Under the pieces are notes generated by a model. That model had not been told where the DNA came from. It ran no database searches and saw only the letters and a program-made list of their open reading frames with translations. Both the position numbers and the translations under genes were made by a program. A DNA stretch of 64,000 nt from an uncultured Erysipelotrichaceae bacterium (lineage in GTDB: Bacteria > Bacillota_I > Bacilli_A > RFN20 > CAG-826): assembly GCA_947166565.1 (NCBI GenBank), contig CAMVEL010000007.1, forward strand, positions 7,323-71,322. The letters are read 5' to 3'. Every line of letters begins with the position of its first letter. The first letter of the stretch is position 1. This document shows positions 1-58,122 of the stretch, piece by piece.

Positions 1-2055
1 AGGTTCCCATCTTTGAAAGAAGTTTCCAAATTAGCGAGGGCCTCATTCATTATCCGAAGCCCGTCATTGGAAGTCGGCACCATATTTCCGTTTCCATCAT
101 CCTTATAGCTATACGGGATGAACCAATTGCTTTTTTGGGTATCCGCGAGGATTTTGCTCTTGGTTTCGTAATCTTTTGTCATCTCGTCCTTTAAGGCCTT
201 TGTGTAGCAAAGAGAGCTAGGCATTAAAGTCAAATAGGATTCTTCGGTAGGTCTAAGGACTCCAACGATTTTGCAGCTAAAGGCGTTGTGATCTTCGTGA
301 TAGAAGGCTTCCATGTCGTTTGGCCCCCTAAAGACCTTTATCTCTTTGGGGCTGGATTCATCGTGGGTTCCGACAAATTTCAAAGTGGAGGTATCCGGAA
401 CGCCATTGTTGATGGTTCCCTCTAAATAAACGTCGCTCCATTGTTCCCTATATTGGAGGAAGGGGTTTTCCAAAGCATAGAAATCGGAATTCCTATAGCA
501 TTTATATTCCTTGAATTTTGTGTCCTCAGGCCCGGAATAGAGGATATCGGAGAAATTGAAGGCTTTCTTTTCGTCGGAAAGTTCAGCATAGCTTGATTCG
601 GAAAGAATGCCCAAATACCTTAGGGTAGAGAATTCGACGCGATTGAATCTATCGACCACGAGAACAAGTTCATCTTCTTTTTCAGGCATGCGTCCCTCGA
701 TTACCTTGTAATAATGATCGAGAAGGTTTTCGTCGCCATAAAGCTCATGGATGATGGTTCCTGGAATAGAGGCATAAGAAGATAGCATGCTGCCAATGGT
801 TCCGGCGTTTCTTGAAGCGTTTATATAAATTACCTTACCCATGTCGCCGTTTTCGGTATAAAAATGAAAGTCGAGGCCTTTTCTATTCTCCAAAATGGAC
901 ATCGCGGTTCCATAGGCCGGGCATTTTGGGTCTTCGACGATGGCGTTCAAATAGTTTAGATACTCCCTAGAGAAAACGTTTTGATGGGAAACATAGGAAC
1001 TATAACTTGTATCGTAAACCCGGAGTTTACCATCGTCTGGAAATTCGTTAAGGCTATTGTAGTTGTCTTTGTTATTTGATCTTGAGGAATAGGTGGTTGG
1101 GGAAATTGTTATAGGAACAGAGCTGCCAACAGAGGTTTCGACGTTGTTAACGTATGTTCTAAAGCCGTTTGAGGCACCTAGAACAAGGCAAACGCCGATT
1201 ACTCCAATTGAGCAGGCAATTGCAGTTACGATATTTCTCCCTTTCTTTAGGAAAATGTTTTGGAAGGACGTTGCAAAGGCCGACCAAATAGGCATTTTGG
1301 ATTTCCCAAGCCCTTTGTTTTCCTTGGGAGCTTCTCCGGTTGCTTCCAGCCTATTGGAATCAGAAGCAATTTTGCCGTCTTCGACAACAATGATTCTGTC
1401 CGCGTATTTTTTGGCGAGGACCTCGTTATGGGTGACAACCAAAACAAGCCTATCCTTTGATAATTCCTTAAGGAGTTCAAGGATTGTAACCGAGGATTTG
1501 CTATCGAGGGCTCCGGTGGGCTCATCGCAAAGAATAACCGAAGGATCGTTTATTATGGCCCTAGCTATAGCCACCCTTTGTTGTTGCCCGCCAGATAGTT
1601 CGCCAGGTTTTTTCTTGAGATCTTCGTTTAGCCCTACTTTTTTTAAAGCGGTTTTTGCCTTAGCTGTTCTTTCTTCCCTTTTTGTTCCGTTTAAAGACAA
1701 CGGGAGGGTGACGTTCTTTTCCAAAGAATATGAAGAAACCAAATTATAGCTTTGGAAGACAAATCCAATGTGTTTGTTCCTATAACTGTCCCAATCCGAA
1801 GGAGAAAAATCCTTAGTGGAGACACCGTCAATCAGCAAATCGCCTTCCTGAAAATGGTCGAGCCCCCCAATTATGTTTAACAAAGTGGTTTTTCCTGAGC
1901 CAGAAGGACCCAAAATAACCACAAATCCAGTTCTTGGAAGGGAAAGGTTAACGTCTTTTAACGCCTCAAAAGAAATCTTGCCTGTCCGGTATTCTTTTTT
2001 GACTCCCCTTAGTTCTAGGAGTATATCGTTATTTTTCTCTTGGCCAGCGCTCATA
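1..2055 (-). CDS. ABC transporter, fused ATP-binding domain + FtsX/MacB-type permease (C-terminus runs off the window)
   Basis: Absent from the ORF track because it has no stop in the window. The reverse frame opens at ATG 2055 (MSAGQEKNNDILLELRGVKKEYRTGKISFEALKDVNLSLPRTGFVVILGPSGSGKTTLLNIIGGLD, Walker A GPSGSGKT) and stays open for 685 codons to position 1. After the NBD come a TM helix (IVTAIACSIGVIGVCLVLGA) and a large extracytoplasmic domain, as in MacB-like proteins. The plus-strand ORFs at 1093-2067 are its antisense shadows. Confidence 0.85.
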
Positions 2056-8291: not shown

Positions 8292-9300
8292 GGCTTTTGG
8301 CCTCCTTTTTTTCGCTTAATAGCAAATTGTATACAGATTGGAGAAACGCTCCGCTGCGTTCGATTGAATTCTTCTTCGCAATCGCGAATGAAGCGTGGGT
8401 CGTTTCCTTTCCTTCGCCTTCGTAGATTTCCTCTAGAAATTGGAGAAGGGCGTCTTCCTTTTTGGCGATTTTTCCAGACACCCCATTGATTAATAAGGGG
8501 TTAAGGTCTTGATTACCGAGGGCGATGACCGGGGTTTTGGCCGAGAAGGCCTCCATCATTCCCGTGGCATCCGGAAGTTTGGAAAGCATCAAGTAGGCGG
8601 AAGCGTGTTTCATTGCGCTGCGATAGACATCATCGCTTAAGACCCTCGATATCTTAAGGTTCTTAGGGGCCTTATTCTTATAATGCCTCACGAGGAATTC
8701 CGCGTAACGGGGTGCGTATCCTAGGAAATAGAAACGCATCTTCGGCATCTTCTTAGCTAAGGAAAGAAGGGTTCTTAATTTCTTGGTTTCATAGAAATTC
8801 CCGGTGATTAAGACATATTTTCTTTCCTTGGAAACTCCGAAATAACGAAGGAAGAGGACGGATTCTATGTCGCTAAGGACGAATCTATCAGGGTTCACGG
8901 AAGGGTGCGAAACGAATATTTTGGATTTGATTCCGTTCTTTTCGCAGAATTTCTTAAGGGGGATCGAAGGGACGAGGACGGCATCCGCCTCATTGAGCAT
9001 CTTCTTGGCTTTTGGTCTAAGAAAGAATTGCCCCTTCGGATCCGCGATAAGCATTCTGGCATCCAAATCCCTTTCGCAGTAGAAGGCGGAGACCACGGTC
9101 TTGACGCCTTTGGCTTTCATTCTCCTCATAAGACCCAAGTCTTTATCGGAGACGAAGTGCGCGATATCGGGTTTGGAATACCTGTTATCGACCCATTCGA
9201 TGCCCATGGATTCGCATTCGCCTTTGAGGGTTTTCCTTAAGCGGTCACCCTCAAAAGCGTCGCGGTTCGAATTTGGTTGGTAATAGACGAGAACTCGCAT
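8284..9300 (-). CDS. GT4-family glycosyltransferase (possibly a glycolipid synthase)
   Basis: 338 aa with the C-terminal GT-B retaining-type motif (PDATGMMEAFSAKTPVIALG). Wedged between gyrA and serS with a 14-nt gap and an 8-nt overlap. Confidence 0.65.
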   Translation of the reverse strand: MRVLVYYQPNSNRDAFEGDRLRKTLKGECESMGIEWVDNRYSKPDIAHFVSDKDLGLMRRMKAKGVKTVVSAFYCERDLDARMLIADPKGQFFLRPKAKKMLNEADAVLVPSIPLKKFCEKNGIKSKIFVSHPSVNPDRFVLSDIESVLFLRYFGVSKERKYVLITGNFYETKKLRTLLSLAKKMPKMRFYFLGYAPRYAEFLVRHYKNKAPKNLKISRVLSDDVYRSAMKHASAYLMLSKLPDATGMMEAFSAKTPVIALGNQDLNPLLINGVSGKIAKKEDALLQFLEEIYEGEGKETTHASFAIAKKNSIERSGAFLQSVYNLLLSEKKEAKSHD

Positions 9301-9314
9301 TGAGCCCCCACTCC

Positions 9315-12044
9315 TTAGGCCACCTCGTCTGGGGTGACCACTTCTTCAACGGCTTCTTCCTCGCCTTCGGATTCGATGACATCGTCATTATCGACGGTGC
9401 CTTCTTCGAATTCGTCTTCATCGCTCACATCAGAATGCGGGATGATGGCAACCGAAGCAACCCTGGCGCTATCTTCGACGGAGATGATCTTGACGCCCAT
9501 GGTATTGCGGGAAGCGATCTTGACCTCGGATAGAGGTGTGCGGATAACGATGCCCTTTGTCGTGACGACAAGAAGGTCTTCGTCGCCGTTGACGGCCCTG
9601 ACGATAACGAGCTTGCCGGTTTTTGGAGAAGCTTTGACGGTAATAACGCCTTTGGCACCACGTTTGGTGAGGCGGTATCCATCATAATGGCGGCCATCCT
9701 CGGTATCGGTGTCTTTGGCGTAGGAGATTTTTCCATAGCCGCGGTTAGTGAGGACAAGGATCTTGTCGCCTTCGCCTTGGACGGCGATGCCAACGATTTC
9801 GGAACCGTCGCCAAGATCCATGCCACGGACGCCGGCGGCGGTACGACCCATCGCACGGACGTCTTCTTCATGGAAGCTGACGAGTTTGCCGTTGCTTGAA
9901 GCAAGGGCGACGATATCGTTGCCGCAGGTACGTTTGACGTCGAAGAGGTCATCGCCTTCGCGTAGACCAACAGCGATCTTACCATTGGAATGGATGGAGG
10001 CGAATTCCTTTAAGGACGTGCGTTTGACGATACCATTCTTCGTAACAAAGAAGAGGTAGTTGTCTTCTGGATAATCTTCGCATGGCATGATGGCGACGAC
10101 TTTCTCATCCTTATCGAGGTTGAGGAAGTTTTGGGCCGGGACGCCTTTTCCTGTCCTACCAGAATCTGGAATCTGGTGGCCGCGTAAGCGATAAACCTTG
10201 CCCAAAGATGAGAAGAAGAGGATGTCGGTATGGGTCTTCGTGTGCTTAATGAGCCTCACGATGTCGTTGCCGACGGTCTTCATGCCGGTGACGCCGACAC
10301 CGCCGCGGTGTTGGGCGGAGAAGGTGTCGTCATCGACCCTTTTGATATAACCGTTCTTGGTAAGGGCGATGATGATGTTCTTTTGTGGGATGAGGTCCTC
10401 GTTTTCGATATCGGCGGCCGCATCGGAAATCTCCGTACGTCTCCTATCGCCAAAGCGAGATTTGATTTCCTCAAGCTCGACGATCATCTGGTCGATGATG
10501 TTGTCCCTGGAGGAAAGGAGACGGTTGTATTCGGCGATGTTCGCTTCAAGAGTGCTCTTTTCGGCGTTGAGTTTGTCTTGCTCCATACCTTGCAAACGGC
10601 GGAGGGTCATCGCAAGGATCGCGTCGCATTGAGGTTGGGTCAATCCGAATCTCCCATTCAAACGTAGCGAGGATTCCTCATCGTTTTTCGAGTCACGGAT
10701 GATGTGAATGACTTCGTCGATGTTATCGTGAGCAAGGATCAAGCCTTCGACGATGTGGAGGCGATCGGTGTCTTTCTTAAGGAGGAATTTGGTCCTTCTG
10801 GTAATAACGGAGACCTGGAATTCAACGTAGTCCTTAAGGAGAGGGATGATGCCCAAGGTCTTTGGGGCCCCATCTTCAAGGCAGAGGTTGATGATACCGA
10901 AATTGCATTGAAGGGCGGTATGCTTAAGCAAATTGTTCGCGACGACTTCGGGAATGGTGTCTTTCCTGATGTCAATTACGACACGGATCTCGCCTTTTGA
11001 TGATTCGTCGCGGATACCGGTGATGCCATCAATGACCTTATCGCGGACCAATTGACCAATGTTTTCGACAAGGGCCGATTTGTTGACTTGATAAGGGATT
11101 TCGGTGACGATGATTTGGGATTTGCCGTTATCAAGGTCATCGATATGGTATTTGGCGCGGACCGTGACGGTGCCGGTTCCGGTGGTATAGGCATCGAGGA
11201 TTCCCTGTCTTCCAAGGATAATACCGCCGCCTGGGAAATCCGGACCAAAGAGGTATTCGGTCATGATTTCCTGAGGGGTGATTTCGGGATTCTTGGCAAC
11301 CGCGATGGTCGCGTTGATCGCCTCAGTTAGGTTATGTGGAGCCATGTTGGTGGCCATACCGACCGCGATACCCTGGGACCCATTGACGAGGAGATCAGGG
11401 AAGCGAGATGGCAAAACCTCTGGTTCGACTTCGGTGCCGTCGTAGTTAGGCATGAAGTTGACGGTATCCTTATCGATATCGCGAACCATTTCGAGGGAGA
11501 GCTTGTTCATCCTGGCCTCGGTATAACGCATAGCCGCGGGTTCATCGCCGTCGATGGAACCGAAGTTTCCGTGTCCATCAACAAGGGGATAACGCAACGA
11601 GAAATTCTGCGCCATACGGGCAAGCGTTCCATATAGGGCGGAGTCGCCGTGGGGGTGATATTTACCCATGACGTCACCAACGATACGAGCGCATTTCTTA
11701 TGTGGCTTATTCGGAGTGATGCCGGCTTCGTTCATGCCATAGATAATTCTGCGTTGGACTGGTTTCAAACCATCGCGAACATCGGGGATTGCACGGGAAA
11801 CGATGACGGACATAGAGTAATCAAGGAAGGCGGTTCGGACTTCTTTGACGACATCCCTATCAATCATCTCGGGGATGATTCCGCTTTTAGCCGCCTCTTC
11901 GCCAAACATCGCATCCGCGCTTTGGGCGCCTTCGCGATTGCCGGCGACGACCGTGATGCCCTCACGGTTTTCTTCGGTTTCGGATTCTTCTTCGTTTTCC
12001 TCAGCTTCTTCTTCGAGGATATCTTTTTCTTCTTCGTTAATCAT
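9315..12044 (-). CDS. gyrA: DNA gyrase subunit A
   Basis: 909 aa with the motifs [30 protein letters not shown] and HPHGDSALY. The ATG at 12044 is preceded by AGGAGGG at 8 nt. The protein carries an acidic N-terminal extension of about 45-60 aa and an acidic C-terminal tail. Confidence 0.97.
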
Positions 12045-12065
12045 TCGAAAATCCCTCCTTTTTCA

Positions 12066-15212
<3,147 letters not shown>

Positions 15213-16809: not shown

Positions 16810-18177
16810 TTATTTGGATAATTTGTTTTTTATCTCGTTTATGGCTGTCCCCATATCCGGGTCGTTTTTCAACTCTCTTTCCACTTTCGAGATACCGCTC
16901 AAGACGGTGGAATGATCCTTACCGCCAAATGCTTGACCTATCTTAATCAAGGGTGTTCCGAGCATTTCCCTATCGAGATACATAGCGATATGACGGGCCA
17001 TGGCCACGCGGCTTGTGCGTATCTTGCCGGTGATTTGGGATGGGGTTAATGAATAGTAATTAGCCACTGCAGCAATAATCTTGTTTTCCGTCAATTCATC
17101 CTGGCTTTCGTGAGCTTCTATCAAAGACCTTATAGCTTCCGAAACGACGCTCATGGTGATGTGCTTTGTTGGCTTGATGTTGATCGTGTAGAAGACCAAT
17201 CTCGTTAATGCACCCTCGAGATCCCTTACGTTGGAACAGAACTTCCTAGCGAGGAAGGAAATGACTTCTTCATCGAAGTCCTTTACGTCTAACCCATGCA
17301 TGGGTATCTTCGATTTCAATATGTTCTCACTAGTTTCAAGATCCGGTTTATCAATGCTTAGGACTAAGCCCTGCGAGAACCTCGATTTGAGTCTTTCGTC
17401 AATTCCGTCTAGATTATTTGGATGCTGATCGGAGGTAATGACAACCTGCTTGTTCGCGTTGATCAACGTTTGGAAAGCATCGAAGAACATTTCCATCGTT
17501 TTGGCTTTCTGCTTCAATAGTTGAATATCGTCAATCAAAAACAAATCAACGTCTTTTCTAAAGAAATCCGTGAAGGATTTAACGCCCTTATAACCGGTCG
17601 CGTATTTCACGTATTCGTTGATGAAATCCGAAGTGGAAAGGAAGAGGACCCTGGCTCCCGGGTTTTTCTCTCTAACAGCATTGCCGATCGCTTGCAAAAG
17701 GTGGGTTTTGCCTAAACCTGGGCCAGAGTATAGAAGCAAAGGGTTATAAAGCTGACCCGGCGTGGAAGCGATCATCAAAGACGCTTGATAAGCCTCTCTA
17801 TTCGATGGTCCGACAATAAAATTGTCGAAAGTGAACTGTTTATTTAAATGCGAAGAAGTGAAATATTGAGGAATCGAATCGTCTTTTGCTTCTTGGGTTT
17901 GACTTGAAGAGGAAGAAGCCACGAATTCAGCGTGGAAATCGGTTCCGGTGACATTATGGAGAACCTCGTCGATGGTTTCCGAGAATTTAGATTTCAAAAC
18001 GGCTGCCGCAACGGGAGTTGAAACGTTTACCGTAATAACATTATTATCTACGCGTGTGGCGTCCGTGCCTGCGAAAAAGCTATCGAAAATCCTTTGTTCG
18101 ATTTTGCCTTTTAATTCCTTCAGGGTCAGTTCCCAGATTGCCTTAAGTTCAGAAATGGTTTCATTCATAATATTCAC
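16810..18177 (-). CDS. dnaA: Chromosomal replication initiator protein DnaA
   Basis: 455 aa with the AAA+ Walker A GPGLGKTHLLQAIG, Walker B LFLIDDIQ, and a C-terminal DnaA-box binding domain (MARHIAMYL...GGKDHSTVL). Confidence 0.97.
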   Translation of the reverse strand: MNIMNETISELKAIWELTLKELKGKIEQRIFDSFFAGTDATRVDNNVITVNVSTPVAAAVLKSKFSETIDEVLHNVTGTDFHAEFVASSSSSQTQEAKDDSIPQYFTSSHLNKQFTFDNFIVGPSNREAYQASLMIASTPGQLYNPLLLYSGPGLGKTHLLQAIGNAVREKNPGARVLFLSTSDFINEYVKYATGYKGVKSFTDFFRKDVDLFLIDDIQLLKQKAKTMEMFFDAFQTLINANKQVVITSDQHPNNLDGIDERLKSRFSQGLVLSIDKPDLETSENILKSKIPMHGLDVKDFDEEVISFLARKFCSNVRDLEGALTRLVFYTINIKPTKHITMSVVSEAIRSLIEAHESQDELTENKIIAAVANYYSLTPSQITGKIRTSRVAMARHIAMYLDREMLGTPLIKIGQAFGGKDHSTVLSGISKVERELKNDPDMGTAINEIKNKLSK

Positions 18178-28747: not shown

Positions 28748-31396
28748 TTATTTGCTCTTGTTGAGGATGGCAGCTTGGGCCGCGGCAAGGCGGGCAAGTG
28801 GGACACGGAACGGAGAGCAAGAGACATAGTCGAGACCGACTTTGTCATAGAAGATGATGGACGCTGGGTCGCCACCGGTTTCGCCACAGACACCGATGAG
28901 GAGGTTTGGGTTGGTGGCGCGACCACGTTCAACAGCGATCTTAACGAGTTCGCCAACGCCTTCGATATCGATGGTCTGGAATGGATCGAATTCGTAGATC
29001 TTCTTCTGCTGATAGGTTGGGAGGAACTGGCCAGAGTCATCACGGGAGAAGCCCATGGTGAGCTGGGTGAGGTCGTTGGTTCCGAAGGAGAAGAACTCTG
29101 CTTCCTGAGCAAGTTTGCCGGCCTGGAGAGCGCCTCTTGGGACCTCGATCATGGTACCGACGTGGTAGACGAGCTTCTTGTCGTGGAGGCCCATTTCCTT
29201 TTCGACGGCATTGACGACGACGTCTTTCGCAAACTTGAGTTCGCGGAGTTCGCCGGCAAGAGGAATCATAATTTCTGGTTCGACGTCTTTGCCGATTTCG
29301 GCAGAAGCCTTGTAGGCGGCTTGGACGATAGCCTTGGCAAGGGTCGCATAGATTTCCGGATAAGCGACGCAGAGACGTACGCCACGGAAGCCCATCATTG
29401 GGTTGGCTTGCTGGAGCTGATTGATACGATCGACGACTTTCTGTTCGGAGACGCCAAGCTTGGCGGCGAGGTCGGCGATGTTCTTCTTGTCACCAAGTTC
29501 TGGGAGGAACTCGTGTAGTGGTGGGTCAAGGAGACGGATGTTGACAAGCGAATCTGGGTTGGCGAGATACATCTTGTAGAAGTCATCCATCAAGAATGGA
29601 CGGATTCTCTCAAGGGCGGCTTCGCGTTGCTCGGTCGTGTCGGAAAGAATCATGGCACGCATATTGAGGATGCGGTCATCCGCGAAGAACATACGTTCGG
29701 TGCGGCATAGACCAATGCCTTCGGCACCAAACTTCTTGGCGTTGTTGGCATCTTCTGGAGTATTGCAGTTGGCGCGGATCTTGAGGCGACGATATTTGTC
29801 GGACCAAGCCATCATACGGCCAAAGTCACCACCGAGATCGGCGGGGATCATTGGGATGGAGCCTTCGTAGACGGCACCGGTGGAGCCGTTGACGGAGATG
29901 ACGTCGCCTTCTTTGTAGACCTTGCCGTTGACGGTCATGGTCTTGGCTTCTTCGTTGATGATTGCAGAGGTGCAACCGGCAACGCAGCATTTACCCATGG
30001 AACGGGCAACGACAGCGGCGTGGGAAGTCATGCCACCGCGAGCGGTGACGATAGCTTCGGAGTTAACCATACCGATGATATCCTCTGGGGAGGTTTCGGC
30101 ACGGCAGAGAACGACCTTGACGCCTTTGTCATGGAGTTCTTTGCACTCCTCGGCGGTAAAGACGATTTGTCCGGTTCCAGCGCCTGGAGAGGCTGGGAGA
30201 CCAACGACGAATGGGGTGACTTTCTTTTCTTCGGCTGGGTCGAAGGTTGGGTGGAGAAGGTCATTCAATTGCTTTGGCTCGACGCGAAGAACGGCTTCTT
30301 CTTCGGAGATGAGGCCTTCGTCGACGAGATCGCAGGCGATCTTGAGGGCGGCGCGAGCGGTACGCTTACCATTACGGGTCTGTAAGAAGTAAAGGACGCC
30401 TTTTTCGATGGTGTATTCCATGTCTTGCATATCACGGAAATAGTTTTCCATCTTCTTGATTGTTTCAATGAATTGCTTGTAGACGTCTGGCATACGCTTG
30501 GCAAGTTCGTCGATATGGAGCGGGGTGCGAACACCGGCGACGACGTCTTCGCCCTGAGCGTTTGGAAGGAATTCGGCGTAGATTTTCTTTTCACCGGTGG
30601 ATGGGTTACGGGAGAAGGCAACACCAGTTCCGGAATCTTCGCCCATGTTACCGAAGACCATCGTTTGAACGTTGACGGCGGTTCCCCATTCATATGGGAT
30701 GCCGTTCATCAAACGATAGACGTTGGCGCGTTCGTTGTCCCAGCTACGGAAGACGGCGGAAACCGCTTCGCGGAGTTGGACGTATGGATCGGAGGGGAAT
30801 TCCTCTCCGAAGACGCTGCGATAGTATTCCTTGTAAGCCTTGACGAGCTCTTTGAGTTGAGGAACGGTGACTTCGGTGTCGAGTTTGTAGCCGTTGTCCT
30901 CTTTGATTTTGTCAAGCATCGCATCCATTTTGGTGCGTGGATGACCTTTGGCGATGTTCGTGAACATCAAGATGAAACGACGATAGGAGTCCCAAGCGAA
31001 CCTTTCGTTGCCGGTGGCGGCGATGAGTTCTTCGACGGTCTTATCGTTGGAACCAAGGTTGAGGATGGTATCCATCATGCCAGGCATGGACATCCTGGCG
31101 CCGGAACGGACGGAGACGAGCAAAGGCATTCCCTTTCCTCCTCCGAAGGATTTTCCGGAGTTCCTTTCAATTTCGTGGACGTGGTTCACGATGTCTTCCC
31201 ACACATAATCCGGGATGTTCTTTCCGGATTCATAGTAGAGGTTGCATGCTTCGGTGGAGATGGTGAAGCCCTGAGGAATGTTAATTCCAGCGGCGGTCAT
31301 CTCAGCAAGGCCGAAGCCCTTTCCACCAAGGATCTCTTTGCCGATTTTGGCTTCGCGAGCCTCCTTGAAGGAGTAAACATACTTCTTATTTGCCAT
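28748..31396 (-). CDS. ppdK: Pyruvate, phosphate dikinase
   Basis: 882 aa with the phosphohistidine motif GGMTSHAAVVARSMGK and a C-terminal PEP-utilising TIM-barrel domain. AGGAGG SD. Confidence 0.95.
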   Translation of the reverse strand: MANKKYVYSFKEAREAKIGKEILGGKGFGLAEMTAAGINIPQGFTISTEACNLYYESGKNIPDYVWEDIVNHVHEIERNSGKSFGGGKGMPLLVSVRSGARMSMPGMMDTILNLGSNDKTVEELIAATGNERFAWDSYRRFILMFTNIAKGHPRTKMDAMLDKIKEDNGYKLDTEVTVPQLKELVKAYKEYYRSVFGEEFPSDPYVQLREAVSAVFRSWDNERANVYRLMNGIPYEWGTAVNVQTMVFGNMGEDSGTGVAFSRNPSTGEKKIYAEFLPNAQGEDVVAGVRTPLHIDELAKRMPDVYKQFIETIKKMENYFRDMQDMEYTIEKGVLYFLQTRNGKRTARAALKIACDLVDEGLISEEEAVLRVEPKQLNDLLHPTFDPAEEKKVTPFVVGLPASPGAGTGQIVFTAEECKELHDKGVKVVLCRAETSPEDIIGMVNSEAIVTARGGMTSHAAVVARSMGKCCVAGCTSAIINEEAKTMTVNGKVYKEGDVISVNGSTGAVYEGSIPMIPADLGGDFGRMMAWSDKYRRLKIRANCNTPEDANNAKKFGAEGIGLCRTERMFFADDRILNMRAMILSDTTEQREAALERIRPFLMDDFYKMYLANPDSLVNIRLLDPPLHEFLPELGDKKNIADLAAKLGVSEQKVVDRINQLQQANPMMGFRGVRLCVAYPEIYATLAKAIVQAAYKASAEIGKDVEPEIMIPLAGELRELKFAKDVVVNAVEKEMGLHDKKLVYHVGTMIEVPRGALQAGKLAQEAEFFSFGTNDLTQLTMGFSRDDSGQFLPTYQQKKIYEFDPFQTIDIEGVGELVKIAVERGRATNPNLLIGVCGETGGDPASIIFYDKVGLDYVSCSPFRVPLARLAAAQAAILNKSK

Positions 31397-53360: not shown

Positions 53361-53421
53361 ACTAGCCTGCTTGTCGCAGGACGAACCCGATTCCCCGATT
53401 TAGGACAAAACGGATTCACCT

Positions 53422-53470
53422 CGACGACGAAGCAACAAACCATCAAGACCGTCCCACGTGGGCGGTTTTC
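53422..53470 (+). repeat. Repeat copy A (GAAGCAACAAACC + CCCACGTGGG hairpin + T tract); acts as the rpsR terminator
   Basis: cgacgacGAAGCAACAAACCAtCAAGACCGTCCCACGTGGGCGGTTTTC. It differs from copy C at 1 of the last 42 nt. Confidence 0.85.
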
Positions 53471-53494
53471 TTATGTTTCTCCTCTTGCTAGTAG

Positions 53495-53622
53495 TATAAT
53501 TGGCTTGGGAATGATGTCTCCCATCTAGAAATAGAGAACCGCAATGAAGTGCTGATGACGTCTATGACTTGTTTTGTCATAGAAATCAGCGCTTTTGTTT
53601 CTATGGCAGATGGGAGGTATCG
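53495..53622 (+). promoter_or_regulatory. -10 box plus a rod-like ~110-nt leader that sequesters the antiporter SD
   Basis: The -10 box is TATAAT at 53495-53500. Stem P1, 53514-53526 (atgtCTCCCATCT), pairs with 53608-53620 (AGATGGGAGgtat), which contains the SD GGGAGG. The inner stems are 53527-53531/53598-53602, 53547-53556/53585-53594 (aagtGCTGAT/ATCAGCgctt) and 53561-53568/53576-53583 (TCTATGAC/GTCATAGA). Confidence 0.55.
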
Positions 53623-54813
53623 ATGAATATATTTCTGTCTTTGTTTATTATTTTTGGTGGTGGGATCCTCGGTGGGTTTTTATTTGAGAAGATCAAACTC
53701 CCCAAACTGGTGTGGTATATCATTCTCGGGATTCTTATTGGACCATCTTTGTTCAATATCGTTGATGATACGTTGCTGTCGGTTTCGTCTCATCTAAGGC
53801 AAATCGCTTTGGTCATCATATTGACCAGGTCAGGCCTATCTTTGAACATTAAGAACCTAAAGAAAATAGGGCGACCTGCGATATTGATGTGCTTTTTACC
53901 CGCTTGTTTTGAAATTGCGGGCATCACGATATTTGGCCCAATGCTCCTCGGGATATCCTATTTCGAAGCCTTGCTTCTTGGCTCGGTCTTGGCGGCCGTT
54001 TCGCCGGCGGTAGTGGTTCCGAGAATGATTCGCCTAATGGAAGAAGGATATGGAAAAGAACACTGCGTGCCCGAACTTGTGATGGCGGGGGCATCTTGTG
54101 ACGACATCTTTGTAATCGTACTTTTCTATTCGTTCAAGAATCTGATCGCAACGTCCACCTTTGACGCTTGGAGCGTCGGGCAAATCCCCATTTCGATCGT
54201 CTCCGGTGTCATTTTGGGCATCGGAGTAGGCTTCTTGATGGTTTTAGCCATTCGATACATGAAACTAAATAGAATCGTCCATGTCATTTTGATGCTCGGT
54301 CTCTCCTTTGGGATGCTCGCCCTCGAGAATGCCTTGAAACCGTATTTCAGCGTTTCGTCTCTATTAGCCATCATCGTCATGGCATTTGTGGTGGGCGTCT
54401 TTAAAAAAGAGGAAGCGAAGGAGATGCAGAAATCCTATAACGGCTTATGGCAAGGTTTTGAAATCCTATTGTTCGCTCTCGTTGGCATTGCGGTCGATGT
54501 TCGTTACGCTTTTTCAAAAGAAGGGGCAGTCATCGTTGGGCTGGTTTTCATTGCGTTGGTATTTAGAAGTTTAGGCGTGTTTTGCAGCATAATTGCAACG
54601 AAATTCGCTTGGAAAGAAAAACTATATATCGTCGTTTCTTATCTCCCTAAGGCGACCGTTCAAGCATCGATTGGGGCGATTGCTTTGTCCGAAGGCCTTG
54701 CTTGCGGCACGTTGGTGCTGACCGCTGCGGTGGTGGCAATATTGATAACCGCTCCATTGGGTGCGATATTGATGGATAACCTGAAAAACAAATTGCTTAA
54801 GAGGGAGGCGTAG
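53623..54813 (+). CDS. Cation:proton antiporter (Na+/H+ exchanger family)
   Basis: 396 aa, polytopic, beginning MNIFLSLFIIFGGGILGGFLFEKIKLPKLVWYIILGILIGP. ATG 53623 lies 5 nt after GGGAGG. The track's upstream TTG start lies inside the leader hairpin. Confidence 0.85.
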   Translation: MNIFLSLFIIFGGGILGGFLFEKIKLPKLVWYIILGILIGPSLFNIVDDTLLSVSSHLRQIALVIILTRSGLSLNIKNLKKIGRPAILMCFLPACFEIAGITIFGPMLLGISYFEALLLGSVLAAVSPAVVVPRMIRLMEEGYGKEHCVPELVMAGASCDDIFVIVLFYSFKNLIATSTFDAWSVGQIPISIVSGVILGIGVGFLMVLAIRYMKLNRIVHVILMLGLSFGMLALENALKPYFSVSSLLAIIVMAFVVGVFKKEEAKEMQKSYNGLWQGFEILLFALVGIAVDVRYAFSKEGAVIVGLVFIALVFRSLGVFCSIIATKFAWKEKLYIVVSYLPKATVQASIGAIALSEGLACGTLVLTAAVVAILITAPLGAILMDNLKNKLLKREA

Positions 54814-54837
54814 TTCCTTCGACTCTTTTATAGGCAA

Positions 54838-54937
54838 GAAGCAACAAATCAACAGGACCGTCCCACGTGGGGCGGTTTTTTCATGCTCGTCCGCCCCTCG
54901 TCCTGGAGTTTTCAGAAGCCATCGACGTCGAAGCTAC
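54838..54937 (+). repeat. Repeat copy B (extended): hairpin module + CCCTCGTCCTGGA + CATCGACGTCGAAGCTAC
   Basis: GAAGCAACAAAtCAACAgGACCGTCCCACGTGGgGCGGTTTTTTC, then ...CCCTCGTCCTGGA(54895-54907)...CCATCGACGtCGAAGCtAC(54919-54937). The second half parallels copy D. It sits directly downstream of the antiporter. Confidence 0.8.
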
Positions 54938-55072
54938 TTTATATACTTGTATATAACTCGTTCTGGCTAGCCCCGGTCGTCCCACGTCTCACGATCGTCC
55001 TTGTGCCGGCAAATTGTTAGGCGTCGTTGGAATCGTGTCACATGGCTCGAATATGGGCTTCGTCGGAGAGAG

Positions 55073-55136
55073 CGGAGTTTGTTCTTTTTCGGAGAATTGG
55101 CGTCGTCATGGGACAGCTTGTGTGTCAGGACGAGAG
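55073..55136 (-). repeat. Degenerate inverted copy (E) of the CTCGTCCTG ... GACGACG ... AACAAAC module
   Basis: The minus strand reads CTCTCGTCCTGacacacaagctgtcCCATGACGACGccaattctccgaaaaAGAACAAACTCC. A degenerate hairpin relic (GGTCGTCCCACGTCTCACG) lies at 54975-54993. Confidence 0.5.
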
Positions 55137-55170
55137 CAATTCTCCTCGTTCATACGAAGATCGTTCTCCC

Positions 55171-55220
55171 CGAAACACGAAGCAACAAACCAACAAGACC
55201 GTCCCACGTGGGCGGTTTTC
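55171..55220 (+). repeat. Repeat copy C; abuts the stop codon of the minus-strand ABC-2 operon
   Basis: cgaaacacGAAGCAACAAACCAaCAAGACCGTCCCACGTGGGCGGTTTTC. On the minus strand the hairpin is followed by CTTGTTGGTTTGTTGCTTC, so bidirectional terminator function is plausible. Confidence 0.85.
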
Positions 55221-55224
55221 TATT

Positions 55225-56016
55225 TCACGATCCCGTGGACTCGTAACGCCTGGCGCATAACGTCCAGATCAACGTGGCCAAAGCGAAGAAAGCAATCGCT
55301 GCTCCGACAATGATCAAGCTCAACAAGTAGGGGTTGTAACTCCCATAGAGCAAAGTATCGACCGGCAGGGAAATGAATAAGCCAAATGGCAAGATGAAGA
55401 TCAGGATGAAGCGGATCGCCTGGGGGTAGATGGCGATCGGGTATTTCGCGTAGATCGTGAAGTTATAGACGATTTGCAGCAGGGGTCCGCTTTTCTTGAA
55501 GATGAAGGCCAAGGAAGATAAAGCGATCTTGAAGGAAGTGATGATGATCGCCCCGAAGATCGCCCCGATGATCAAGACGAAGATCGCCCCAAAACTGACC
55601 GATGTCTGGAGGTTCAGCCCGCAGATGGTGATCATGGTGACCCCGACGATGATCTCGCCGAAACCATCGGGCTGGAACGTCTCCGCGAACATCTGGAAGA
55701 TCACGGGCACAGGACGCAGGAAGTGCCGGTCCATATCGCCCAATTGGACCCTTCGATAAGCAACCAGCCAGAATTCGTCGCTGAAGAGGTGATCCAAGGC
55801 GATCGGAAGCATCGAAAAACCATAGAAGAAACCGACTTCCGCGGGAGTATATCCCTTCAAAGAAGGGATGGCTTGGAGAATGAAGAAGATGGAACCCAAG
55901 GAGCAGGCATTGGAAATCAAAAAGGAAAGGATTGAGATGATCGAGTCCTTCTTATATTCCAAGCGGGACATCATGCTGCGCTTGATGCAGGTGAGATAAA
56001 GCTTCACGTATCGCAT
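55225..56016 (-). CDS. ABC-2-type transporter permease (uncharacterised ABC system)
   Basis: 263 aa, about 6 TM, last gene of a three-gene ATPase-permease-permease operon. Confidence 0.75.
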   Translation of the reverse strand: MRYVKLYLTCIKRSMMSRLEYKKDSIISILSFLISNACSLGSIFFILQAIPSLKGYTPAEVGFFYGFSMLPIALDHLFSDEFWLVAYRRVQLGDMDRHFLRPVPVIFQMFAETFQPDGFGEIIVGVTMITICGLNLQTSVSFGAIFVLIIGAIFGAIIITSFKIALSSLAFIFKKSGPLLQIVYNFTIYAKYPIAIYPQAIRFILIFILPFGLFISLPVDTLLYGSYNPYLLSLIIVGAAIAFFALATLIWTLCARRYESTGS

Positions 56017-56017
56017 C

Positions 56018-56878
56018 TTATCCTCCCTGCACCGTCACGATCTTGATCGCGTGGTTGAATAGCAATTTGCCGATGAGTTCCAATAGGACCCACCATCCGA
56101 AAGAGATGAGGATCACTTTTCCGCATTCGAGGTAATCGTATTTCATCATGAGGATGAGAATCGGGTTCTGGCTCATGCCCGCGAAGGGCATGTAGCTTAC
56201 GATTTCGCGGAAGATATTGGGGAAAAACGCGATCGGAAGCAAGGTGCCGGATAAGAAGGCGATCACCGTCGTCTTGAGCGCGTTTAAACCCCAGGCCGCG
56301 GTGGTGTAGAAGCACAAGATCCCGAAGATATAGGAAATCGCCCCATTCAATAAGCAGGCGAGGACGCTGGCGACGAGGAACAATAGGAAATGGGCGATGA
56401 AATCCCAGATTGAAGCCACGGGAAGATAGCCGATCCCAATGAGTACCCCGAGGCCCGCGGCGTACAAAGGAATCCCAAAGACCAGCGACATCATGAGGAA
56501 CGCTCCAATGTTCGAGGCGATGAATTTCCCGCGGTAGGAAATCGGCTTGATGAGGAAGTTTCCAATCGTCCCTTGCCGGATATCGCGGTTGATGAACCAC
56601 ACGGTATCGTCATTGAACGTCACGAAGCCGAAGATCGTCGTCAATACCACATAAACGATCATCTCTTTGTAGGTGAAGCCGTTGATCGAAGAATCGATCC
56701 CGCCTTCGCTACTTTGATAAACGGCGAGCCAAAGGAAAATGAGACAAGCCACTTCGGCGACGGTGACGATCGCCCAGGTGATGATGTTGAAGCGGTAGGC
56801 CATCACATCGATGGCCGACGCGCGGGCGAATGGCTTATATTTCCTCAGCCTACTCATGTTCTTCTTCCTGCTGGGCAA
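56018..56878 (-). CDS. ABC-2-type transporter permease (uncharacterised ABC system)
   Basis: 286 aa, polytopic. The start is 56878 or 56857 (MSRLRKYKPF), and either overlaps the end of the ATPase gene. Confidence 0.75.
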   Translation of the reverse strand: MPSRKKNMSRLRKYKPFARASAIDVMAYRFNIITWAIVTVAEVACLIFLWLAVYQSSEGGIDSSINGFTYKEMIVYVVLTTIFGFVTFNDDTVWFINRDIRQGTIGNFLIKPISYRGKFIASNIGAFLMMSLVFGIPLYAAGLGVLIGIGYLPVASIWDFIAHFLLFLVASVLACLLNGAISYIFGILCFYTTAAWGLNALKTTVIAFLSGTLLPIAFFPNIFREIVSYMPFAGMSQNPILILMMKYDYLECGKVILISFGWWVLLELIGKLLFNHAIKIVTVQGG

Positions 56879-57854
56879 GGATCTTCTTCACGACGTCTTC
56901 GATTGAGATGTCCGTGATTTTCATATCGATCGCGTGATATTGGGAGAAAGAGTATTGGATGATGTGCTCGAGCACGACCTTGTCCGCGTCAAATTTGAGC
57001 ATGACCTTATCTTTATGGTCTTCATCCAACTCCATCATGACGTCTTCGGAGAATGGTTTCACTTCATTCGGATCGACGCTCGGGGGGATGGTCAAGGTCA
57101 GGGTCTTGATGTTCCCGAACCGCCGCTTGATATTCCCCAACGGGCCATCATAGATGATCTTCCCTTTCTCGATCATGATGATGCGCGAGCAGAGGTTCTC
57201 AATGTCCGCCATATCATGGGTAGTGAGGACGACGGTGGTGTGGTATTTCGCGTTCAACGCGTGGATCGCCGTGCGGATCTTGTCTTTGACAAGGACATCC
57301 ATGCCGATGGTAGGTTCATCAAGGAAGAGGATCTTCGGGTTATGAAGCATCGATGCCGCCAAATCCGCGCGCATCCTTTGCCCTAAGGAAAGAGTGCGGA
57401 CCGGCTGATTCATGAATTCGTCGACGCCGAGGACGGAGGATAGGAATTGGATCCTTTCCTCATAATCGGAATCCGACACTTGATAAACCTCTTTGAGCAC
57501 TTTGAATGACTCGATCAAGGGGATGTCCCACCATAACTGGCTCTTCTGCCCGAAGACGACCCCGATGTCTTTGGCGACGATCCGGCGCTTCAGATAGGGC
57601 TCTTTGTCGTCGATCAATACCTTTCCGGAGGTGGGGGTGAGGATGCCGCACATCATCTTGATCGTGGTGGATTTCCCCGCGCCATTGGAGCCGATGTAGC
57701 CGACGATCTCGCCTTCCATGATGTCGAAAGAGACGTCATCGACGGCGCGGATCTCCGTGTATTTCCGGGAGAACAAAGTGGCAAGCATCCCAACGAGGCC
57801 TTTGCCCCTTATGGGTTTCCGAAAGATTTTGCTTAGGTTTTGGACTTGGATCAT
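56850..57854 (-). CDS. ABC transporter ATP-binding protein
   Basis: I place the start at ATG 57854 (MIQVQNLSKIF). Walker A is GSNGAGKST, the signature is LSLGQRMR, and Walker B is LFLDEPT. The 50 upstream codons of the track ORF run through repeat copy D. Confidence 0.88.
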   Translation of the reverse strand: MIQVQNLSKIFRKPIRGKGLVGMLATLFSRKYTEIRAVDDVSFDIMEGEIVGYIGSNGAGKSTTIKMMCGILTPTSGKVLIDDKEPYLKRRIVAKDIGVVFGQKSQLWWDIPLIESFKVLKEVYQVSDSDYEERIQFLSSVLGVDEFMNQPVRTLSLGQRMRADLAASMLHNPKILFLDEPTIGMDVLVKDKIRTAIHALNAKYHTTVVLTTHDMADIENLCSRIIMIEKGKIIYDGPLGNIKRRFGNIKTLTLTIPPSVDPNEVKPFSEDVMMELDEDHKDKVMLKFDADKVVLEHIIQYSFSQYHAIDMKITDISIEDVVKKILAQQEEEHE

Positions 57855-57916
57855 GTTGAGAATACCTTTGGTATCGTTCCTTATTGTACCGCAGCGGGCA
57901 AGGCAAAAGAAAGAAG

Positions 57917-57999
57917 CGTCCCTCGTGGACGGTTCTTTCGTCGTCGTGTGTCCCTCGTCCTGGAAATATTGGAAATCATCGACGACGAAGCAACAAACC
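57917..57999 (+). repeat. Repeat copy D: variant hairpin + CCCTCGTCCTGGA + CATCGACGACGAAGCAACAAACC
   Basis: CGTCC-ctcgt-GGACG (57917-57931), CCCTCGTCCTGGA (57952-57964) and CATCGACGACGAAGCAACAAACC (57977-57999). On the minus strand the hairpin is followed by CTTCTTTCTTTT, so it works as the terminator of the lipoprotein gene. Confidence 0.75.
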
Positions 58000-58122
58000 G
58001 ACATTATTCAGGCGACTACTATGTTTATAAATGTAGAAAGTGTGGCGCAGCCTGGACAAAACATATTAGCTAACCATCACTTTATCGTTTGCTTAAGTTA
58101 AGTCGTCCATAGTGGCGATTCT

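Follow-up and report, generated by a model that had tools for sequence, protein, structure and literature searches.

Structured junction repeats bound a putative cassette array downstream of rpsR in uncultured rumen Erysipelotrichaceae

We analyzed a 64,000-nt stretch of DNA from an uncultured Erysipelotrichaceae bacterium (contig CAMVEL010000007.1; hereafter the window, in whose positions coordinates are given) that carries four copies, A-D, of a hairpin-containing repeat. With moderate confidence, based on sequence comparison, we interpret these copies as junction elements of a single-locus cassette array that lies between rpsF-ssb-rpsR and conserved core genes and is swapped by homologous recombination. 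The hosts would be a clade of uncultured rumen Erysipelotrichaceae. As judged from their sequence features, the junction elements would terminate and insulate transcription between self-contained cassettes, each with its own promoter and, in two cases, also its own riboswitch. They could also supply short stretches that are near-identical across species, on which homologous recombination or gene conversion, probably following uptake of foreign DNA, would swap, add, or delete cassettes from hairpin to hairpin. Terminator-type hairpins lie at the cassette ends, and a long palindrome is present. The array is single and anchored, its cargo varies, sequence identity breaks at the hairpins, and no recombinase is encoded nearby.

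A first-pass annotation of the window had placed four copies in this region and none elsewhere in the 64 kb, and our pattern and profile searches agree. A 23-nt hairpin pattern matched three times, compared to 0.00 matches expected from 100 shuffles, which excludes chance as the source of the hairpin copies. When we searched with a 13-nt core, allowing up to two mismatches, we obtained eight matches compared to 1.87 expected, of which only the four at A-D were family members. A profile built from 17 family members matched only 53369-53469, 54827-54878, and 55041-55219, with one additional hit in which the palindrome matched itself on the minus strand. Neither the hairpin pattern nor the profile detected family copies beyond these loci in the window. 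Rereading the sequence bore out the described relationships between the copies. Copies A (53427-53471) and C (55177-55221) are the same at 44 of 45 positions, and copy B (54836-54880) carries two substitutions, an additional G, and a lengthened T run. Copy D (57914-58003) consists of a degenerate hairpin followed by CCCTCGTCCTGGA...CATCGACGACGAAGCAACAAACC, and shares with B a second block, made up of CCCTCGTCCTGGA and CATCGACG[T/A]CGAAGC. The 21-mer TCGACGACGAAGCAACAAACC is present as exact copies at 53421-53441 and 57979-57999.

Pfam matches identified the surrounding genes as those for S6, SSB, and S18; a Na_H_Exchanger protein; and, on the minus strand, an ABC ATPase with two ABC2_membrane_6 permeases. 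These assignments agree with the rpsR, antiporter, and ABC-2 genes named in the first-pass annotation, from which the fluoride riboswitch described below was absent. Copy A lies 69 nt past the rpsR stop codon and copy B 23 nt past the antiporter stop codon. Copy C is 3 nt from the stop codon of the ABC-2 operon, which is on the opposite strand and thus convergent.

For comparison, we retrieved relatives through exact matches to the S18 protein, and scanned species-representative genomes once with a core-plus-hairpin pattern and metagenomes once with the end of module M1 (described below). The resulting loci, labeled L001-L036, are all contigs of metagenome-assembled genomes (MAGs) or metagenomes. 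Downstream of rpsR in these relatives, synteny with the window halts at 54815; past a stretch of other genes it is restored precisely at 57985, within the core of copy D. Three loci (L001-L003) lack the ABC-2 operon and contain different cassettes at that place. Together with the identity breaks within hairpins A and B, this supports the earlier suggestion that the copies bracket cassettes and are footprints of cassette insertion.

The antiporter cassette allowed these breaks to be located. A fluoride riboswitch (RF01734, 37.5 bits compared to a gathering score of 34) lies at 53498-53571 on the plus strand, upstream of the Na_H_Exchanger gene, and one also precedes every antiporter cassette in the relatives. 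Over 1364 nt (53472-54835), the window and five other loci (L011, L013, L014, L015, and L032) differ at 7-13 alignment columns, corresponding to 99.0-99.5% identity, while the 100 nt on each side contain 9-30 differences. The antiporter proteins are 98.0-98.7% identical. In the same genomes, rpsF-ssb-rpsR DNA is only ~50-80% identical, and the S6, SSB, and S18 proteins are 68-74%, 44-54%, and 81-84% identical, respectively. On the left, identity breaks in the loop of hairpin A (53455-53458), and on the right in the loop of hairpin B (54864-54869). Seven genomes have an identical 5′ half of hairpin B (AAGAAGCAACAAATCAACAGGACCGTCC), while its loop and everything downstream differ. From these alignments, cassettes appear to have crossed species boundaries at hairpins recently, and the antiporter cassette, from the loop of hairpin A to that of hairpin B, is most simply read as a recent import or sweep. 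Such high identity in at least five other species-level genomes suggests that a fluoride-tolerance unit has spread recently in rumen bacteria. An exact-protein look-up of the antiporter returned no match. A second allele class of this cassette, ~90% identical in DNA and 93.7-95.2% in protein, was present in five loci (L001, L010, L022, L029, and L036); in this class, the cassette has part of an M1 at its end instead.

The ABC-2 operon, which extends from hairpin C to hairpin D, is a second cassette and older than the antiporter one. At the protein level, it is 87-94% identical to its counterparts in L011, L015, and L017, compared to 67-69% for S6. Across arrays, the same cassettes occur in different orders. 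Judging from family matches, array cargo includes toxin-antitoxin pairs, GNAT acetyltransferases, candidate defense genes, and transporters. Where the window has the ABC-2 operon, L001 contains, between the same fixed flanks, an amino-acid ABC transporter with a lysine riboswitch, an unknown protein of 396 aa, a Mac/hexapeptide acetyltransferase, and a Nif11-like protein of 99 aa. Other arrays contain repeated MNT/HEPN (HepT) pairs and HEPN-GNAT fusions; HTH-GNAT, RhuM, and ORF6N proteins (PADLOC PDC-S05); AbiEii; TIR-DUF4097 proteins that are ThsB-like; and an SNF transporter. A lysine riboswitch (RF00168, 65-67 bits) lies ahead of the amino-acid ABC cassette in L001 (12002-12179) and L022 (6810-6987, minus strand), indicating that cassettes carry their own cis-regulators. 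In addition to fluoride and lysine riboswitches, cassettes contain promoter-like sequences.

Beside the array, the window is AT-rich between 58000 and 59100 (GC content 0.35, compared to ~0.45), with two minus-strand genes that lack a significant family match; one encodes a 195-aa protein with only a weak match to a lipoprotein signal. Contigs of the same species also have this region, conserved, beside the array, and it may be one more cassette of greater age.

The family was found in at least 10 species-level MAGs of rumen Erysipelotrichaceae or Bacilli and in 17 metagenome contigs. The MAGs matched (RUG266, RUG275, RUG13318, RUG14006, RGIG3485, RGIG3712, RGIG5035, RGIG8459, UBA7278, and SIG221) are deposited as uncultured Erysipelotrichaceae, Bacilli, or Bacillales. 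A match in one cyanobacterial MAG was rejected as chance, since this genome shares nothing else with the family. At every locus with informative context, the modules lie directly 3′ of rpsF-ssb-rpsR, and all are co-oriented with rpsR. Within each genome, matches were confined to one or two contigs, consistent with a single array. Contig pairs of one MAG join as one array: L013 contains rpsR and L012 the right flank, and the antiporter gene is split between the end of L019 and the start of L017. On the right, the array is flanked by a DNA_alkylation gene or by DUF1846-GdpP-L9. The ribosomal operon of the window is ~95-100% identical to those of RUG266 and the L001 contig, which places the organism in that species or very near it. 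Judging from two pattern scans and one profile search of incomplete genomes, the family appears to be confined to a single locus per genome and not dispersed.

This distribution bears on one possibility raised in the first-pass annotation, a dispersed element of the repetitive extragenic palindromic (REP) or BOX type. Such a mobile repeat, or one of the miniature inverted-repeat transposable element (MITE) type, would transpose around the genome and have landed four times here by chance. Although BOX, ERIC, RUP, and Correia elements likewise have palindromic, modular units, we consider this very improbable. The remainder of the 64 kb lacks further copies, the matches in species-representative genomes all fall in one array, and the metagenome matches with context are all linked to rpsR. 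At the module and cassette junctions examined, we saw no target-site duplications, although these junctions included no clean pair of empty and filled sites for a single unit. Searches of IMG/VR, phage records, and plasmids yielded zero matches to the modules, and thus no sign of a phage or plasmid origin.

Alignment of the loci revealed that copies A-D are pieces of a larger modular family, consisting of M1, M2 or L1, a linker plus terminator (M3), M4, and X. Copies A, B, and C are copies of M3, and D is a decayed M3 hairpin followed by M4 and the first 16 nt of M3. When complete, a junction element spans ~180 nt and comprises a ~130-nt imperfect palindrome (M1 plus M2 or L1), the A/C-rich linker GAAGCAACAAACC, and the terminator hairpin. 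The features of the window, in order, are:

53361-53428, plus strand: module L1, of right-arm type, straight after the rpsR stop codon and ending in TCGACGACGAAGC
53429-53471, plus strand: copy A, an M3, with linker GAAGCAACAAACC, terminator hairpin (53445-53469), and T run
53472-53622, plus strand: leader of cassette 1, with a promoter-like stretch containing TATAAT and the fluoride riboswitch (53498-53571)
53623-54813, plus strand: cargo of cassette 1, a Na+/H+ exchanger-family gene of 396 aa (Pfam PF00999, E = 2.6e-43)
54836-54882, plus strand: copy B, the M3 variant AAGAAGCAACAAATCAACAGG..., whose hairpin has an extra G and which travels with the class I antiporter cassette
54880-54947, plus strand: module M4 (CCCTCGTCCTGGA ... 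CATCGACGTCGAAGC), a short relative of the palindrome arms
54939-54956, no strand: palindrome TTATATAC-TT-GTATATAA at the M4/X junction
54948-55018, plus strand: module X, a conserved filler from M4 to M1
55019-55115, plus strand: module M1, the left palindrome arm, with a sharp 3′ boundary at ...GGCGTCGTCATGGGAC
55116-55175, plus strand: module M2, the right arm, complementary to M1
55176-55221, plus strand: copy C, an M3 with linker and terminator; candidate bidirectional terminator
55225-57854, minus strand: cargo of cassette 2, the ABC-2 exporter operon (Pfam), with ATPase (56850-57854) and permeases (56018-56878 and 55225-56016), inverted relative to the repeats
57914-57936, plus strand: copy D, part 1, the degenerate M3 hairpin AAGCGTCCCTCGTGGACGGTTCT
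57937-57991, plus strand: copy D, part 2, of M4 type, with 75-78% identity to M4 in window copy B, L010, and L011
57985-58003, plus strand: copy D, part 3, the truncated linker ACGAAGCAACAAACCGACA, which forms the right junction between the variable region and the conserved flank

The first-pass annotation had described a cyclic unit of 85-90 nt. The shared block ends are real, but the unit is incomplete, as the true units are longer and modular; it appears cyclic because M4, L1, and M2 all end in CGAAGC and the same linker.

The modules recur in varying combinations. L1 is present after rpsR or after M1 in eight loci (L013, L014, L015, L018, L020, L022, L023, and L029) at 89-98% identity, and is complementary to M1 where both are present. 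M1 occurs in more than 40 copies over the loci, all oriented as rpsR, and is followed by at least eight different sequences. M4 is the spacer between two tandem units in L002, L003, L004, and L010, and X is 84-98% identical in 13 loci (L011, L013, L014, L015, L016, L020, L021, L023, L025, L029, L030, L032, and L034). Upstream of the junction at 57985, the partner is M4 in the window and M2 in L001, L002, and L003. Modules can be more conserved than ribosomal proteins: L020 and L025 contain copies of M1, M3, and L1 (57-85 nt) at 91-99% identity, and L036 contains shorter pieces of M1 and M3 at 97.5-100% identity, while S6 is only 56-66% identical in these three loci.

The palindrome at the M4/X junction has conserved arms and a variable 2-3-nt spacer in ~20 copies, with a two-sided arm change (TTATATAT...ATATATAA) in L011 and L013. 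Candidate roles for it are those of operator, promoter element, and recombination site. In L010, the junction between M4 and M2 falls at the center of this palindrome.

We also made several observations on the internal organization of the arrays. The block M4-X-M1-M2-M3 (54880-55221, ~340 nt), which lacks an open reading frame (ORF), is conserved whole in many arrays, where it frequently comes first behind the rpsR terminator. An empty cassette is one possible reading of this block, and a gene for a ~270-nt non-coding RNA another; a consensus scan revealed no convincing promoter for it. In L001, a gene for the 99-aa Nif11-like/zinc-ribbon protein (17215-17848) lies between M1 and M2, at the apex of a palindrome that is contiguous elsewhere, and M1 alone follows three successive cassettes. 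In the window copy, M1-M2-M3 contains a stretch of ~220 nt (55027-55246, plus strand) without a stop codon in any of the three frames. However, other copies, such as those in L008, contain stops, and the substitutions are not codon-like. We therefore rejected a coding role for M1-M2, and the stop-free stretch is probably compositional. We also rejected M1 as a degenerate rpsR 3′ end, as the local alignment score was 17, compared to a mean of 15.7 and a maximum of 24 for shuffles. Duplicated 3′ fragments of rpsR, spanning the last ~20 codons, do occur inside arrays, at ~246-300 (minus strand) in L008 and 4334-4396 in L015, in each case directly ahead of a right-arm module. These fragments look like relics of recombination anchored on rpsR itself.

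The hairpins have the features of intrinsic terminators. Copy A forms a 10-pair stem followed by TTTTCTT at 53445-53469, and copies B and C are alike; a GC-rich stem and T run are thus found after rpsR, after the antiporter gene, and at the end of the ABC-2 operon. Among 46 copies compared, the stem GACCGTCC/GGGCGG is conserved, while the loop is CACG in 17 and CTCG, CATG, ATCGC, GTTTT, GTCAT, or others in the rest. As the stem is kept while the loop varies, we favor a terminator over a protein-binding site. Plus-strand termination is well supported by these features, as is the prediction that copy A terminates the rpsF-ssb-rpsR operon. Of the bidirectional termination proposed in the first-pass annotation, the plus-strand half thus has good support, while the minus-strand half is plausible at copy C, where the convergent ABC-2 stop codon is 3 nt away and the T-rich run TCTTGTTGGTTTGTTGC follows the hairpin on the minus strand.

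The variable loops also bear on the idea that CCCACGTGGG is an operator-like site through which a dimeric DNA-binding protein co-regulates both transporters. This perfect 10-bp palindrome occurs three times in the window, but in only 17 of the 46 family copies. Orthologous positions read CCCTCGTGGG, CCCATGTGGG, CCATCGCTGGG, or CCGTTTTGGG, such that the central bases vary and the palindrome is lost while the stem is kept, and the site lies at 3′ ends before T runs, not in promoters. The protein-binding palindrome of the first-pass annotation can thus be set aside, as there is next to no likelihood that such an operator exists; CCCACGTGGG appears to be merely the commonest loop variant. Likewise, the three identical loops in the window simply represent this variant and not concerted evolution.

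Upstream of the linker, M1 and M2 of the window fold into a long hairpin (-76.2 kcal/mol, z = -4.3), and single-sequence folds give a similar structure for most of the 17 composites, whichever right arm they carry. RNAalifold applied to a mixture of arm types did not recover the long hairpin, since the right-arm types do not align, and we relied on the single-sequence folds instead. The family profile matches its own reverse complement. The base helix of M1 plus M2 is GCTTCG/CGAAGC, and its internal loops are symmetric (8x8, 3x3, 1x1, and 1x1). We found no Rfam family for any module, either at the gathering threshold or at E <= 1, ruling out a known RNA family.

One explanation for such a structure is that the ~180-nt unit of M1, M2 or L1, linker, and terminator is a small RNA or an element of 3′ untranslated regions that functions, for example, in mRNA stabilization or processing, and that its link to cassette ends is secondary. 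In 13 of the 17 composites, the plus strand folds better than the minus strand, partly through G-U pairs. The unit ends in a terminator and is always oriented as the transcribed strand of rpsR, and the M4-X-M1-M2-M3 block is conserved despite its lack of an ORF. Nevertheless, we regard a structured RNA as improbable. In addition to the lack of an Rfam match, only one of 51 predicted pairs exhibits two-sided compensatory changes, and a DNA inverted repeat whose arms have diverged would typically have such symmetric internal loops. Halves of the unit occur alone, L001 has genes between M1 and M2, and no convincing promoter lies ahead of M1. Moreover, RNA function would leave the identity breaks in the hairpins unexplained.

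How the cassettes move is a separate question. We think that exchange probably proceeds by general homologous recombination or gene conversion, with the modules serving as portable homology. Right arms that are chimeras of L1 and M2 are present in four loci (L021, 311-489; L007; L016; and L023). The position of the left crossover varies: in L011, L013, L014, and L015 it lies 5′ of the loop of hairpin A, such that the loop ATCGC is common while the left arms differ, and in the window and L032 it lies 3′ of this loop. In L027 (560-600), the promoter-side end of an ABC-2 cassette joins the resident terminator imprecisely, with loss of the 5′ stem (AAGCGT joined to GGGCGGTTTTT). The chimeric arms, variable left crossover, and imprecise L027 join favor homologous recombination over a fixed crossover.

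An alternative is integron-like, site- or structure-specific recombination, in which the terminator hairpin, the 130-nt palindrome, or both are sites for a recombinase encoded elsewhere, and cassettes are cut out as circles that carry one reconstituted hairpin and enter at another hairpin. The array would then be a Gram-positive integron analog without a cis-encoded integrase, mobilized by that recombinase or by hairpin cleavage and repair, with a cassette pool belonging to many rumen species. Cassettes do run from hairpin to hairpin whatever the orientation of their genes, all junction elements have a single orientation, and conservation is higher in the modules than in ribosomal-protein genes. 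As in chromosomal integrons, cassettes are separated by imperfect palindromes, and toxin-antitoxin and GNAT genes abound in the cargo. In five genomes, the 5′ half of hairpin B accompanies the cassette, whereas its loop and 3′ side are different. However, using Pfam and NCBIfam, we found no integrase, transposase, or recombinase in ~30 loci, nor within 10 kb on either side of rpsR. The palindrome lacks attC R-box motifs at its GCTTCG/CGAAGC base helix, and it has no extrahelical bases among its symmetric internal loops. The chimeric arms, variable crossovers, and imprecise L027 junction described above also argue against such a mechanism, half elements (M1 alone or M3 alone) are common, and cassettes carry their own promoters and riboswitches. 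Thus, recombination at dedicated sites seems unlikely to us, and an integron analog in the above sense is similarly doubtful.

Several findings also weigh against exchange by homologous recombination. The near-identical antiporter tract ends inside the same ~10 nt of hairpin B in five genomes, and the 3′ end of M1 falls sharply at one place, the apex of the palindrome, across at least eight contexts. Junctions as precise as these could likewise come from a site- or structure-specific mechanism. Perfect conservation extends over only ~20-30 nt at a time, a short length for exchange that depends on RecA. Were gene conversion frequent, copies within an array might have become homogenized, yet we detected no such effect for M3 (identity 0.774 within compared to 0.790 between arrays, p = 0.79) or M1 (0.752 within compared to 0.762 between arrays, p = 0.60). 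Finally, all comparison data derive from MAGs or metagenomes, in which assemblers can create chimeras at repeats. With respect to this last concern, the pattern recurs across contigs of different deposited assemblies, from samples labeled goat, roe-deer, and water-deer, and the junction repeats are only ~45 nt long.

Little is understood of how Firmicutes-type bacteria, when no obvious mobile element is present, build up small accessory cassettes and share them. The locus described here is a stacked, species-crossing cassette pool whose structured junction repeats are better conserved than ribosomal-protein genes, and its near-identical antiporter cassette points to a fluoride-tolerance function moving through rumen communities. 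If the junctions act only as portable homology, the locus would be a clean natural case of repeat-driven cassette exchange by homologous recombination; if they are true recombination sites, it would represent a new cassette-capture system. The repeats also carry a practical warning, as they can fragment or mis-join rumen MAGs.

Two observations concern other parts of the window. A bacterial small signal recognition particle RNA (RF00169, 51.8 bits) lies at 2580-2665 on the minus strand, and GC content reaches 0.49-0.55 at 9000-14000 and 29000-31000, compared to a background of ~0.43-0.46.

Among known systems, the array resembles chromosomal integrons and attC-site clusters with no integron integrase (CALINs). 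As in these systems, in which the repeats (for example, those of Vibrio cholerae) are attC sites, array-restricted imperfect palindromes of ~120-130 nt lie between cassettes, the repeats have one orientation, the cargo is dominated by toxin-antitoxin, GNAT, and unknown genes, and cassettes are common to several species. Like CALINs, the array has no adjoining integrase; we found no intI beside it, as judged from the absence of a Phage_integrase match in ~30 arrays and 10 kb on either side of rpsR. An attC-type imperfect palindrome of ~57-141 nt at the 3′ end of a cassette has its counterpart in the ~130-nt palindrome, although many cassettes end in M1 or M3 alone. Direct reading of both strands identified neither R'' (RYYYAAC) nor R' (GTTRRRY) at the arm ends, and, unlike in integrons, the palindrome has neither R''/R' core sites nor strand-specific extrahelical bases. 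In further contrast to integrons, each element includes a separate intrinsic terminator, and half elements are common. Integron cassettes are mostly promoterless and co-oriented, while array cassettes have their own promoters or riboswitches and the ABC-2 cassette is inverted. Complete integrons have been reported to be absent from Firmicutes and Tenericutes genomes (PMC4889954). The array differs from integrons in that its hosts are Firmicutes-type and that it is anchored to a housekeeping operon.

The array also shares features with several other systems. Like pneumococcal BOX, ERIC, RUP, and Correia elements, its repeats are built from a few sub-units whose complementary outer modules form a long stem-loop, and they are intergenic or 3′ in location. 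Those elements are dispersed through a genome in tens to hundreds of copies and mark no boundaries of exchangeable cassettes, whereas this family resides at one locus and delimits cassettes. In the minimal mobile elements of Neisseria, and at integration hotspots driven by homologous recombination, alternative cassettes lie between conserved genes without mobility genes, and their exchange is attributed to homologous recombination after DNA uptake. The array likewise has alternative gene content between fixed flanks, with no mobility genes found, but its homology comes mainly from internal, portable repeats whose conservation exceeds that of the core genes at the flanks, the array stacks many cassettes, and exchange occurs across species whose flanks are 50-80% identical. 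The pdif modules of Acinetobacter are bounded by 28-bp XerC/XerD sites in alternating orientation on plasmids. As in those modules, which often carry toxin-antitoxin or resistance genes, the array cassettes are small, have short conserved bounding sites, and encode no recombinase; unlike in pdif, we identified no such sites in the array, where the 8-2-8 palindrome at the M4/X junction occurs only once per block. Lastly, copies A, B, and C resemble Rho-independent terminators in that they lie at 3′ ends and combine a GC-rich stem with a variable loop and T run, but differ from ordinary terminators in that ~45-180 nt of flank are common to species at 85-100% identity. In the literature, we found no relevant description of such a cassette array. 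The locus is most aptly called a cassette hotspot whose junctions are structured repeats, with an integron-like architecture but without the integron machinery.

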